DNA of 64,000 nucleotides from Leptolyngbyaceae cyanobacterium (GTDB lineage Bacteria; Cyanobacteriota; Cyanobacteriia; Phormidesmidales; Phormidesmidaceae). Location: the NCBI GenBank assembly GCA_965263355.1, contig CBDHHL010000032.1, positions 2,144,001 through 2,208,000 of the forward strand, read 5' to 3'. The notes below the pieces were generated by a model. It was not told where the DNA came from and made no database searches. It was given only the letters and a program-made list of their open reading frames with translations. Shown here piece after piece: positions 45,121 to 60,212 of this stretch. The translations under genes were made by a program, and so were the position numbers. Within the stretch, counting starts at the first letter, position 1, and every line of letters begins with the position of its first letter.

Positions 45121-45337
45121 GTGCTAAAAAGTGTGGTTTTTCCCAGTTATTTATAGAAACTCCTTTAAGCTTTACTTGTTAATCCCTTGTTGCTCAAAGC
45201 TTACACGAAGCTTCTTAGTTTGCCTCAAAACGTCAAAAGAATCGCACTTTTTGCCACCGACATTAGTGCATTAATTAGCCATTATTGATTTATTGCAGAG
45301 ATTCCTCAATATCAATTTATTGAAGACTTTCTCAGTA
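45121..45337 (+). promoter_or_regulatory. Shared island promoter module, copy 1
   Basis: GTGCTAAAAAGTG (45121), then CACTTTTTGCCACCGAC (45245-45261)-N14-TAGCCA, then TTCCTCAAT and CTCAGTA. Homologous to 54579-54795. Confidence 0.8.
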
Positions 45338-45413
45338 CTTATAGTTTTACTTCGTCTAGCCAGTTCTCATAACTGAATAATATTTCTGGCTTTCCGACTA
45401 AGGATTTAAACTC

Positions 45414-56561: not shown

Positions 56562-59500
56562 ATGCTTGTTGACGAAGCACTTTACCTTTTAGATGCTGCT
56601 CTGAAACCTGCCCACCTGAGCGACACTCAGGAACTGGTGTTTCGCCACGTGTGGGACCAGAAAACCTACGAAGAAATTGCACAAACCAGTGGTTATGACA
56701 CCGATTATATTAAGCATATAGGGTCTCAGCTGTGGAAATCCCTCTCCCACGCTTTAGACCAAAAGGTAACCAAGAGTAATATTCGGTCAGTCTTGAGACA
56801 GGTTAACCAGAGACCAGCATTATCCGCGTCCACCAATCAATATCAAGATTGGGGTGATGCCCCCGATGTTTCTACCTTTTATGGCCGTACGGAAGAGCTT
56901 GCCACTCTTAACCATTGGGTTGTCAACGATCGCTGTCGTTTAATTACCGTTTTCGGGATGGGAGGTATTGGTAAAACCACCTTGTCTGTAAAACTTGCGC
57001 AGCAGATCGTTGTGTCAAGCGCTCAGTCCGAGCAAAATGCATTTCGATATCTGATTTGGCGATCGCTTCGGAATGCTCCACCACTAGTTGATTTATTAGC
57101 TGATCTGATTTATGCACTATCTAATCAACAGGCAACAGACTTACCTGAAGGGGTTCATGCCCGCATCCTTCTTTTACTTGATCATCTGCAAAACTCTTGC
57201 TGCTTGCTGACTTTGGATAATTTGGAAACAATCCTTTCCAGCACAAAGCAGACAGGTCACTATCGAGAAGGCTATGAAGCGTATGAACAACTTTTTGATT
57301 CCATTGGTAAAACTGCGCATCAAAGTTGTCTAATACTGACCAGTCGTGAAAAGCCTCAAGGTCTAGGTGTGCAGGAAGGAAAAACTCTTCCAGTTCGCTC
57401 TTTTCGACTAGTTGGTCTCACTCAGAATGAAGGGCGAAGTATCCTTGAAGCTAAAGGGCTCTCAGTAACATTGAAAGATTACCAAGTCTTAGTTGATCAC
57501 TATGCGGGAAACCCTCTGGCATTAAAAATTGTTGCCACGACAATTCAAGAGTTATTCAATGGAAATATTACTCATTTTTTGCAGCAAGGCTGCTTTATTT
57601 TTGGAGATATTTCCGCCCTTTTGACACAGCAGTTTGATCGACTGTCGCCTTTGGAACAGCAGGTGATGAACTGGCTGGCGATAAATCGTGAGTGGATATC
57701 ATTATCAAAACTTGCACAGGATATTGTCCCTCCCGTTTTACCAAGATCTCTATTGGCAGCTTTGGAATCTCTCAATTGCCGTTCCCTGATTGAGAAAAAA
57801 GTATCGTTACCTTGCTTGCAAGGAGTGAGCTGTTTTACACTGCAACCTGTGGTAATGGAGTTTATTACTGAGCGATTGATTGATCAGATTTTACAAGAAA
57901 TTTGCGCTGGGAAAAATGCCAATTTAAATGAATATGCCCTGATCAAAGCTCAGTCGGAAGATTACCTACGTGAGGCTCAGACATATCTAATTTTAGAACC
58001 GGTTGCCACCCAATTGTTGCAACACTTTGGTTGTCGAGAGAAGATAAAGCAATGTTTAGCACAAATTCTTGCAAATTTGCATTCTCAACAGACTTTAACC
58101 AAGCCATCTAATTTGTCGAAGTTAACATCAATACCTGTTGCTGGATATACTGCTGGCAACATTCTTAATTTGATGTGGTATTTGGGTATTAATCCTCGGG
58201 GGTACAATTTTTCAAATTTGCCCATTCGGCAGGCATTTCTTCAGGGAATTAGCTTGCATGACGTTAATTTTTCCGATTCGGACTTGGCAACATCTTTATT
58301 CACGGATTTGTTTGGGGAAGTTGGTTCTGTAGCAATTGCTCCCGATGGGAGCTTACTAGCCATGAGTTCCCATGGAAATATCCTGTTGTGGAACATAGAG
58401 ACGATGCAACATCAGCTAACCTTCACAGGACATCAACGCTTGGTTAGGTGCATTGCCTTTACACCCCAATCTATTCACGCTGAGGTAGCGCTATTATCAA
58501 GCGGTAGCAGTGACCGAACGGTGAAACTTTGGAACGCTATGAATGGTCAGTGTCTTAAAACGCTAAAAGGTCATACAGGACCAATTCATGCGGTTGCTTT
58601 CAGTGCTGATGGTCGCACTATTGCAAGTGGCAGTGGCGATCAAACTATAAGACTATGGGATATAAAAACTGGCCAGTGCTTTAGCGTATTGAAGGGACAC
58701 ACCAGTCATGTTTTATCTCTTATTTTTATGCCACATGAGGACATCCTTATTAGTGGCAGCGTAGACTGCTCTATTAGATTTTGGGATATCAGTACAGGGA
58801 CATGCTTACGCACATTACAAATTGAGACTGAGTTTGGTTGGATGTTGAGAATTGCCTTGAGTCCTGATGGGCAGACACTGGCGGTAGCTTACGATGGTAA
58901 AATTATAGAATTTTGGAATCTTGATACCGAAGAATGTTCGAAAACATTATTACCCTTTGGTAAGGGTGATGTAATACGAGCGATTGCCTATGCCCCAACC
59001 CCAAATGAGTTTTCTCGTCAAATGTTAGCAACTGGTGGAAGAAGTAAATCTGTCAAAATTGTGGATTCCTATACCGGTGAGAACATTCAAACTCTCCTAG
59101 ATGATAGTGATAGCACTTGGCAGATTCATTTCACCCCTGATGGTAGTAAGCTAATCAGAGTCAGTGAAAGTCAAAATGTTAGAGTTTGGAATACTATTAC
59201 TGGACAACGTCTTAGAACACTCCGAAGCGATGCTAACGGCATCACATCAGCTGCCTTTAGCCCAGACGGACGATTTCTTGCTAGCAGTTCAATAGATCAA
59301 CAAGTTCAAATCTGGAATATAGCTACTGGTACTATTGAAAAAACTTTATCGGGACATTTCGCTCCTATTTCGACTGTTGTTTTTGCTCCTATTGATAAGG
59401 GGAAGATTTTGCTTAGTGGGAGTGATGATAGAACTATCAAACTTTGGAACTGGCAAACTGGCGAGTGTTTGAGAACCCTTTGGGGACATAGTGATGATGT

Positions 59501-60212
59501 AGTATCTCTCAGTCTTTATCTGAAAACTCAGCTTCTTGTTAGCAGTAGTGGGGATCAGACAATCAAATTGTGGGACTGGCAAACCGGAGAATGTTTGCAA
59601 ACCTTAGAAGGGCATCTCCGGAGGATTCGGTCAGTAGTGTTTAGTCCAAACGGAGCAATGCTTGCTAGTTGCAGTGATGATCGAACCGTCAAACTGTGGG
59701 AAGTCGATACAGGGGTTTGCCTACAAACATTGCAGGGGCATGACTATCAGGTGATGAAGGTTATCTTCAGCCCCGATGGTCAAATAGTAGCGAGTTGTGG
59801 ATTGGATCAGACAATTCGGTTATGGGATGTTCAAACTGGGAGCTGTCTGCAAACTCTATCGGATAAATATCCAATTCGATCAATTGCTTTTAGTCCAAAT
59901 GGTCAGTTTCTGGCTAGCGGTAGTACTAATGGCCTGATCAAAATATGGAATGTGGGATCATGGACCTTTAGCAAGACATTACGTGGACATCAGCGGGAAG
60001 TTACAGCACTTACATTCCATCCCAATAGTCAGGATCTAGCGAGTGGGAGTAGTGATGAAACGATTAAGCTTTGGAATTTTAAGATGGGTGAGTGTTTAAG
60101 GACACTACGTACCACTCTCCGTTATGAAGGCATGAACATTAGTAGGACTAAAGGTTTAACGACTGCACAACGAGCCACTATGAAAGCACTAGGTGCGATT
60201 GAGATTGACTAG
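56562..60212 (+). CDS. STAND NTPase: N-terminal HTH, NB-ARC, pentapeptide segment and WD40 repeats
   Basis: HTH-like segment (TYEEIA...Y...YIK.IGS.LWK.LS); DWGDAPDV..FYGR; Walker A GMGGIGKT; Walker B LLTLDNLE; YAGNPLAL; roughly 13-14 GH...SGS.D.T.KLW repeats. Confidence 0.93.
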   Translation: MLVDEALYLLDAALKPAHLSDTQELVFRHVWDQKTYEEIAQTSGYDTDYIKHIGSQLWKSLSHALDQKVTKSNIRSVLRQVNQRPALSASTNQYQDWGDAPDVSTFYGRTEELATLNHWVVNDRCRLITVFGMGGIGKTTLSVKLAQQIVVSSAQSEQNAFRYLIWRSLRNAPPLVDLLADLIYALSNQQATDLPEGVHARILLLLDHLQNSCCLLTLDNLETILSSTKQTGHYREGYEAYEQLFDSIGKTAHQSCLILTSREKPQGLGVQEGKTLPVRSFRLVGLTQNEGRSILEAKGLSVTLKDYQVLVDHYAGNPLALKIVATTIQELFNGNITHFLQQGCFIFGDISALLTQQFDRLSPLEQQVMNWLAINREWISLSKLAQDIVPPVLPRSLLAALESLNCRSLIEKKVSLPCLQGVSCFTLQPVVMEFITERLIDQILQEICAGKNANLNEYALIKAQSEDYLREAQTYLILEPVATQLLQHFGCREKIKQCLAQILANLHSQQTLTKPSNLSKLTSIPVAGYTAGNILNLMWYLGINPRGYNFSNLPIRQAFLQGISLHDVNFSDSDLATSLFTDLFGEVGSVAIAPDGSLLAMSSHGNILLWNIETMQHQLTFTGHQRLVRCIAFTPQSIHAEVALLSSGSSDRTVKLWNAMNGQCLKTLKGHTGPIHAVAFSADGRTIASGSGDQTIRLWDIKTGQCFSVLKGHTSHVLSLIFMPHEDILISGSVDCSIRFWDISTGTCLRTLQIETEFGWMLRIALSPDGQTLAVAYDGKIIEFWNLDTEECSKTLLPFGKGDVIRAIAYAPTPNEFSRQMLATGGRSKSVKIVDSYTGENIQTLLDDSDSTWQIHFTPDGSKLIRVSESQNVRVWNTITGQRLRTLRSDANGITSAAFSPDGRFLASSSIDQQVQIWNIATGTIEKTLSGHFAPISTVVFAPIDKGKILLSGSDDRTIKLWNWQTGECLRTLWGHSDDVVSLSLYLKTQLLVSSSGDQTIKLWDWQTGECLQTLEGHLRRIRSVVFSPNGAMLASCSDDRTVKLWEVDTGVCLQTLQGHDYQVMKVIFSPDGQIVASCGLDQTIRLWDVQTGSCLQTLSDKYPIRSIAFSPNGQFLASGSTNGLIKIWNVGSWTFSKTLRGHQREVTALTFHPNSQDLASGSSDETIKLWNFKMGECLRTLRTTLRYEGMNISRTKGLTTAQRATMKALGAIEID

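Follow-up and report, generated by a model that had tools for sequence, protein, structure and literature searches.

MalT of Escherichia coli has a LuxR-type helix-turn-helix (HTH) domain and acts on oppositely oriented box arrays. STANDs, multi-domain ATPases of signal transduction, are activated in the order of ligand binding, nucleotide exchange, oligomerisation and cooperative binding at several promoter sites, and MalT is such an activator, oligomerising on ligand and ATP (PMC10427625; here and below, statements on published systems refer to the passages of each source that deal with them). AfsR and the large SARPs of Streptomyces have an N-terminal DNA-binding domain, a nucleotide-binding oligomerisation domain and a repeat sensor, and AfsR recognises 11-bp direct repeats over the -35 position, upstream of a suboptimal -10 element starting with C (CACTGT) (PMC10936776). 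In Synechocystis PCC 6803, the HTH-STAND XssQ (Slr5058) switches on multiple promoters within its own gene cluster, which has an extracellular output, through single or tandem AAGTTXXAC boxes, as found by electrophoretic mobility shift assay (PMC8205485; further passages in bioRxiv 10.64898/2025.12.18.694786 and PMC12267927). Defence STANDs (Avs) and Apaf-1-like proteins with NB-ARC followed by WD40 propellers are enriched in cyanobacteria (PMC13581612), and a sigma-like class named 'r4_2*NB-ARC' comprises cyanobacterial NB-ARC, WD40 and AAA_35 proteins fused to sigma70 region-4 matches (PMC11119718). Here we describe a 64-kb stretch of DNA from a Leptolyngbyaceae cyanobacterium (contig CBDHHL010000032.1; the whole stretch is called the window), in which a gene at 56562-60212 encodes an HTH-NB-ARC-WD40 protein. 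With a probability of roughly 0.7, this protein is a STAND-type transcription activator, and paired boxes in three promoters of the window are its predicted operators.

The gene (+ strand) is the last of an island at 45414-60212, in which our ORF (open reading frame) survey of the window found nine ORFs, all on the + strand. The initial annotation had described a co-oriented island ending in an HTH-STAND gene, and the domain assignments agree with this. The 1216-aa protein has the order HTH - NB-ARC/NACHT - WD40, with Pfam matches above cut-off to NACHT (PF05729, E 6.5e-9) and NB-ARC (PF00931, E 4.5e-7) and a C-terminal repeat sensor of 10 WD40 stretches (PF00400, E 7e-118). The NTPase motifs are GMGGIGKT at 132, LTLDNLE at 216, ILTSRE and GNPLAL, and both Walker A (G132-T139) and Walker B (D219-E222) are intact; a P-loop domain of this kind together with a C-terminal repeat sensor characterises the NB-ARC/AP-ATPase-type STANDs. 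The HTH spans residues ~1-85, with helices at 36-43 and 47-65, the latter being the recognition helix that carries H52. In a structure prediction (pLDDT 84), the N-terminus is confidently modelled as a LuxR/GerE/sigma4-type HTH, the top structural matches being RcsB, NarL, GerE and sigma4 with Z-scores of 7-8 (7.7-8.2 to RcsB, NarL and sigma4) and rmsd 1.4-3. A sequence search among solved structures returned no match. The N-terminal domain of the window STAND probably belongs to PF26355, which we take to be the family named HTH_VMAP-M9 and which is listed on 46-51% identical homologs (P0034, P0065, P0075, P0098 and P0099). A metagenome scan yielded one short relative (L014, 88%) with another gene upstream, in which positions 480-607 match window 56436-56561. 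Because L014 keeps the ~125 nt before the STAND start but not the upstream gene, the STAND gene probably has its own promoter, and the cargo genes probably turn over fast.

A motif common to three promoters of the island had been noted in the initial annotation, and it turned out to be richer than described there. In each of these promoters (P1, P2 and P3), a + strand copy of CACTTTTTNNCAY is accompanied by an inverted one that lies 111, 122 and 113 bp upstream, respectively. P1 consists of a distal box reading CACTTTTTAGCAC on the - strand (45121-45133), a proximal box (45245-45257, +) and, at the offset seen family-wide, the -10-like hexamer CATTAT of the inferred promoter (45280-45285, +). 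The corresponding elements are 53211-53223 (-), 53346-53358 (+) and CACATT at 53381-53386 in P2, and 54578-54590 (-), 54704-54716 (+) and CATCAT at 54739-54744 in P3, where a second 10-bp-phased unit extends the distal element to 54568-54590 (-). A CAnnnT hexamer is found at one common offset after all three proximal boxes, with a spacing of 21 nt. Transcription is predicted to start at ~45292 from P1, ~53393 from P2 and ~54751 from P3. The whole window contains six copies of CACTTTTTNNCAY, all within the P1-P3 pairs, and 2000 dinucleotide shuffles of the non-coding DNA of the island produced no pair and at most one copy. No box precedes the STAND gene itself. Just downstream of the box, P1 and P3 share 77% identity; duplication thus contributed to these two promoters, which are partly duplicates. 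On the other hand, identity among four promoters is ~30% over the 60 bases that lie upstream of the proximal box, yet both boxes are retained.

The closest STAND ortholog, L001, has 65% identity over residues 1-538 and 75% in the HTH, with H52 likewise present. Its gene neighbours differ from those in the window, and a pair spaced by 107 bp lies in the promoter directly after the STAND gene and before an LGFP-repeat gene; this is the sole 90-120-bp pair in its genome, G001. Of 401 cyanobacterial genomes, 2 have a pair at 100-130 bp, and the control likewise gave 2 matches. A pair match in G173 was rejected, as this genome has no close STAND match and the frequency equals the control rate; a further match lies in G003. 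On a separate contig of G001, an 81%-identical ortholog of the 267-aa protein encoded behind P2 has both boxes in its promoter, with 95 bp (~9 helical turns) between the boxes missing, and no HTH-STAND gene lies within the 16 kb examined there. The short-spaced pair pattern has one match across G001, and since the control search also gave one match, this pair counts only via its orthology with P2. Twenty more distant homolog loci of the 267-aa gene lack the box (their best score is 10.0 with the matrix described below, and a single array reaches 14.8), and none of them has a STAND gene within 1.5 kb. The 503-aa and BTRD1-like cargo proteins of the window had no match in G001, which is an incomplete genome. 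As judged from these comparisons, the box follows the regulator and not the cargo.

At least 4582 proteins match STAND residues 1-300 (E <= 1e-30), the HTH query matches 136 of 150 genomes of one order, and 89 HTH-STAND genes were recognised in 86 of 89 sequences. A position matrix trained on the eight boxes from the window and L001 (threshold >=10) matched 17 of the 59 divergent-neighbour promoters that had been held out, versus 16 of 353 other promoters (p 3e-9, with rows that are not independent and other promoters that are slightly shorter). In reverse orientation it matched 1/59, and among co-oriented downstream promoters 1/22. De novo expectation-maximisation (EM) on 66 held-out regions, excluding the window and L001, recovered an 11-bp ACTTT repeat with a log-likelihood of 112-128, as opposed to 47-48 in two shuffles. 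The element is composed of N-AC(T/C)TT units with a 10-12-bp period, and the last unit is truncated to N-AC. A hand-set array model of this element matched 27/59 divergent promoters, one in reverse and 9/353 others, or 21 of 40 clusters (70% identity) forward and 3 in reverse. The model was then frozen and applied to new loci, where it matched 22/42 divergent rows forward versus 3 in reverse and 0/13 non-divergent rows; by cluster, 19/33 versus 2 (ten duplicates were dropped, and L145 is the same locus as L189, hence two genes are counted twice). A test of whether the motif co-occurs with HTH-NB-ARC-WD40 genes across cyanobacteria had been suggested in the initial annotation, and these forward and reverse counts show such co-occurrence for the family. 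HTH genes without an NB-ARC match have arrays in 3/30 rows by the frozen model.

The array is also phased with a putative -10 element. Measured from the last AC, TAnnnT has an offset of 24-25 in 13 of 36 cluster representatives and of 34-35 in 9 of 36, and the remaining 46 offsets have 30 matches in total (0.65 per offset). In two sets of five genomes, both chosen for having HTH-STAND loci, there are 14 element matches (versus 2 in controls) with 8 adjoining a STAND gene, and 7 matches (versus 0 in controls) with 5 adjoining a STAND gene, corresponding to 1-4 copies per genome. Among the copies away from STAND genes are those in two remote promoters, one before a gene for a CHAP protein and one before a gene for a Calx-beta protein. 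Duplicated promoter cassettes precede several cargo genes in L100, L103, L121 and L122. Three of five plasmid loci have an array, including that of Nostoc PCC 7120 pCC7120alpha, and two have none (pREB1, score 10.1; pSYSG, no divergent neighbour). On pCC7120alpha, the STAND is WP_010999686.1, the predicted target is WP_010999685.1, and the -10-like hexamer reads TAGAAT. No distal pair common to the family emerged from a generic scan of 28 loci for inverted repeats separated by 85-140 bp; the long inverted pair belongs to the subfamily of the window and L001.

We also compared the variable base before AC with residue 52 in the recognition helix. In the first set, D, E or N at position 52 goes with G in 13/13 clusters, and other residues in 0/10. 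In the new set, G is found with D/E/N in 6/11 and with other residues in 0/8 (p 0.018; 0.077 in new clusters only). When 73 rows with a site are pooled, canonical helices with D have G in 24/24 and non-D/E/N residues in 0/39, in a post hoc split in which C was assigned to eleven rows on the basis of exact single boxes. The base follows the residue in 67/73 rows, and the rule fails for the four helices that carry an extra residue. The window protein, with H52 and a CAC box, agrees with it. In the trees, we counted 5 and then 8-9 changes for each of the two traits. We regard this putative code as a lead and not as a result.

Several loci of the family have additional elements. In L002-L004, whose recognition helix is longer, the ACTTT array upstream of the STAND gene is replaced by a conserved long inverted repeat, TATGAAC..TCTATCTAT followed ~47 bp on by ATAGATAGA..GTTCATA. 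In Nostoc-type loci (L070, L073, L075-L077, L096-L103, L197 and L198), a TTTACGTAA palindrome is conserved ~20-30 nt upstream of the array and is perhaps the site of a second factor. L145/L189 (G613:C33) has two HTH-STAND genes back to back, and the array is directed at one of the two, which may point to a cascade of regulators. In L225, a 270-aa protein (5949-6761, -) has the HTH of this family with no NB-ARC or WD40 match, and is encoded near a box at 7787 that precedes a solute-binding protein gene. L009 (G003:C2:994681-994786) has 10-bp-phased AAAAGT repeats plus an inverted copy, downstream of a gene that we take to be hetR-like.

A fused HTH and a predicted, phased and repeated operator with constant spacing to the -10 element place the window STAND with activators of the MalT/AfsR/GutR/XssQ kind. 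MalT also binds cooperatively at several sites, but its DNA-binding domain is C-terminal, and it has a TPR-like sensor, maltotriose as the ligand and another box (PMC10427625), where the window protein has an N-terminal HTH and WD40 repeats. AfsR resembles it in domain order and in the 11-bp repeats with a -10 element starting with C, and differs in its SARP domain, its TPR sensor and the distance of its last repeat to the -10 element (8 bp, versus 21 nt for the LuxR/sigma4-type HTH protein here; PMC10936776). XssQ, likewise a cyanobacterial STAND with an N-terminal HTH, has 783 aa, NACHT and NCH2 domains and no WD40, is under the XssS/XssR phosphorelay, and uses the box AAGTTXXAC and not CACTTTTTNNCAY (PMC8205485). 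No BLASTP match between XssQ and the window STAND was found at E <= 1, the HTH profile of the STAND family has no match in XssQ, and no XssR/XssS-like response regulator or kinase gene flanks the window STAND. The window protein shares NB-ARC followed by WD40 propellers with the Apaf-1-like and Avs proteins, and has an HTH where these have a CARD, caspase or nuclease, the predicted output being transcription (PMC13581612). In the passages concerned, PMC11119718 gives the NB-ARC/WD40 fusions without operator, target genes or activation, and those of PMC13581612, PMC7159879 and PMC8195603 hold no description of this regulator. Our literature search, which covered few subscription journals and no supplements, found no paper on the operator of this HTH-STAND family and none naming PF26355. 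HTH-STAND activators are thus already known in cyanobacteria from XssQ, with another HTH and box; what is new here is a predicted operator and regulon for HTH-NB-ARC-WD40 STANDs.

Of the island genes listed in the initial annotation, the PAN protein and its paralog, the beta-helix/FG-GAP protein and the two proteins without named function are as described there. The first gene (45414-46925, +) encodes a 503-aa tailspike-like or pectate-lyase-like beta-helix protein (PF12708, E 1e-10), whose PHROG matches to tail spikes and exopolysaccharide depolymerases lie mostly in residues 6-200, and it would open a predicted six-gene operon transcribed from P1. A PAN_4 protein (47170-47766, +, extendable to 47095; E 2e-18) and a 129-aa PAN-less paralog of its N-terminal domain (47812-48201, +; 44% identity, 124 aa) follow, both with an N-terminus that looks signal-peptide-like by eye. 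The 672-aa protein (48355-50373, +) is a second tailspike-like protein. It has its N-terminal domain in common with the 503-aa protein (34% identity over 145 aa), and its PHROG tail matches have E 1e-4 to 1e-6. Two tailspike-like beta-helices had been claimed; PF12708 upholds the one in the 503-aa protein, and the other is weakly suggested by a low-confidence model of the 672-aa protein (pLDDT 41.6; best structural match a tailspike, E 7.5e-4). Next are a 167-aa protein (50425-50928, +) that falls into unnamed Atlas clusters, with no match in Pfam or PHROG, and a protein with beta-helix and FG-GAP repeats (51038-52951, +, extendable to 50996; PF13517 E 1e-36, PF13229 E 3e-4). The 267-aa protein behind P2 (53433-54236, +) belongs to an unnamed cyanobacterial family. 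The Trp-rich repeat protein behind P3 (54857-56290, +, extendable to 54800) is composed of an acidic N-terminal repeat and five 49-aa BTRD1-like repeats; the repeats claimed for it are there, and BTRD1 itself is below the Pfam cut-off. Degradation of glycans by the island cargo may be proposed from fold similarity, its sole basis.

A long inverted repeat at 54436-54490, after the 267-aa gene, is possibly a terminator or processing hairpin; a promoter/terminator scan, whose output was at chance level, was silent on it. The GC content shows no sharp contrast between the island and its surroundings, and contigs from two sequencing runs cover the region. In run X1, one low-depth contig joins 46876 to 48331 and skips the PAN gene pair (35 letters on the short side), a weak hint at a cassette-less variant. 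Elsewhere in the window, a 5205-aa protein similar to Tc-toxin-complex A (1392-17009, -) has VRP1, ABC_toxin_N, neuraminidase-like and TcA_TcB_BD regions and many hemopexin repeats, near a second ORF (1-1311) that extends past the window edge. A trypsin-like protease with weak tectonin repeats is encoded at 24833-26704 (-).

Among the genes behind arrays in other genomes are those for lysozymes, amidases, M23, M74 and S8 peptidases, RTX and Ig/cadherin proteins, including RTX/Ig adhesins, and also a PLAT protein and a ricin-type lectin. Others encode response regulators, BMP ABC transporters, a methyltransferase and a decarboxylase. Wall-hydrolase or peptidoglycan-binding domains are found in 6/37 and 2/21 neighbouring or target genes versus 0/60 other genes of the same loci, a rough comparison in that 60 of 287 other genes were scanned with a stricter E cut-off. 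The family thus leans to secreted and envelope cargo and not to one single arsenal. For the regulon claimed in the initial annotation, the link between regulator and operator is backed by comparative evidence, whereas the arsenal is not conserved and the targets elsewhere are varied. A BMP-type ABC transporter operon lies divergent to a widespread STAND orthologous group with a conserved array (L005, L051, L061-L064, L067, L110-L117 and L131-L139), and this group is well suited for testing the ligand in a metabolic setting.

These data are best read as a class II activator of the MalT/AfsR-like type, whose cargo is swappable and often secreted. The link between regulator and operator is well supported, because the box follows the STAND family, points at the neighbours and has the geometry of an activator site. 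In the resting state, the WD40 propellers would keep the NB-ARC module closed, until it is opened by a partner or by a ligand, which by analogy with Apaf-1 is most likely a protein. Oligomers with ATP could then display several LuxR/sigma4-like HTH heads, which would read the N-AC(T/C)TT units phased at 10-12 bp. Lying 21 nt ahead of a weak -10 element, the proximal box extends over the upstream edge of the -35 position, and the bound protein would recruit RNA polymerase there by class II activation; a single oligomer might bridge or wrap the DNA up to the inverted distal box. In the window, three transcription units (45414-52951, 53433-54236 and 54857-56290) would be driven in this way, presumably for swappable, partly secreted surface and repeat proteins, and the role is most likely an inducible surface, biofilm or interbacterial programme. 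Sensing by WD40 is the least supported step, because shorter members unable to hold propellers use the same box.

A number of points weigh against such an activator. Its support is comparative, and the Z-scores of the HTH fold are no higher than commonly seen for small helical domains. The array model was set by hand after the first set had been viewed, and the independent tests are those of the matrix, EM and the frozen model only. The array is absent in about half of the divergent clusters (19/40 and 14/33), and promoter and regulator gene are linked, so that co-descent accounts for part of the pattern. Residue-base covariation is weaker in the prospective set (p 0.018, and 0.077 in new clusters only, as above), and well-supported branches hold only 1-3 independent trait pairs, never opposed and never significant. 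Another paralog in the genome of the window could be the box binder. Members of ~440 aa, too short for WD40 propellers, adjoin the same box, and because they have no room for it, the propeller is not needed for this operator.

The same activator might be a true immune receptor, whose propellers sense a phage or predator protein and whose island is an inducible defence arsenal. The Apaf-1-like architecture fits this, as do the excess of wall-hydrolase and peptidoglycan-binding domains in the rough comparison above and the passages of PMC13581612 that list WD40 sensors among defence STANDs and place the closest Apaf-1 homologues in cyanobacteria. However, PADLOC 2.0.0 (2023 library, E 1e-5) matched 0/9 island proteins, no cargo of the window is similar to an abortive-infection effector, and many targets are metabolic or regulatory (the BMP-type ABC transporter, decarboxylase, methyltransferase and response regulators). 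We consider an immune role of this kind unlikely. Less plausible still is that the boxes are read by another factor, such as a global regulator or an alternative sigma factor, and that the promoter cassette accompanies the STAND gene only through duplication and linkage. The 77% identity of P1 and P3, the duplicated cassettes that also occur in Nostoc-type loci and the lack of significance of the tree-corrected covariation would be explained by it. But the element is rare and mostly beside a STAND gene (8/14 and 5/7 matches), is strand-specific towards the neighbour, and has a variable base that tracks the recognition helix in most rows. A repressor that is released by ligand, or that controls only its own gene, might be expected from a box that touches the -35 position, where it could block sigma region 4, and from divergent loci with the box in the regulator's own upstream region, but it is very improbable given the lack of a good -35 element, the weak CAnnnT -10 and the fixed, phase-locked distance that mark activator-dependent promoters, the location of the window and L001 boxes outside the STAND's own upstream region, and the fact that three characterised HTH-STANDs (MalT, AfsR and XssQ) are all activators.

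The occurrence of this box next to many relatives suggests that a large family of cyanobacterial immune-receptor look-alikes, annotated merely as NB-ARC or WD40 proteins, may be gene activators. A defined operator, a promoter geometry and named targets make the whole family testable. If this reading is true, the signalling output of Apaf-1-like receptors can be transcription rather than cell death, and the family would offer ligand-gated, possibly re-targetable activators for cyanobacterial engineering. A bolder and rather doubtful extension is that these proteins are 'transcriptional NLRs' (NOD-like receptors) expanded in multicellular cyanobacteria, whose Apaf-1-like propellers detect foreign or damage-derived molecules and whose HTH heads, guided by a code of one residue (D for GAC; H, Q or K for CAC or other), activate exchangeable cassettes for secreted lysins, lectins, depolymerases and adhesins. 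If so, they would constitute an inducible, non-suicidal innate immunity in bacteria.

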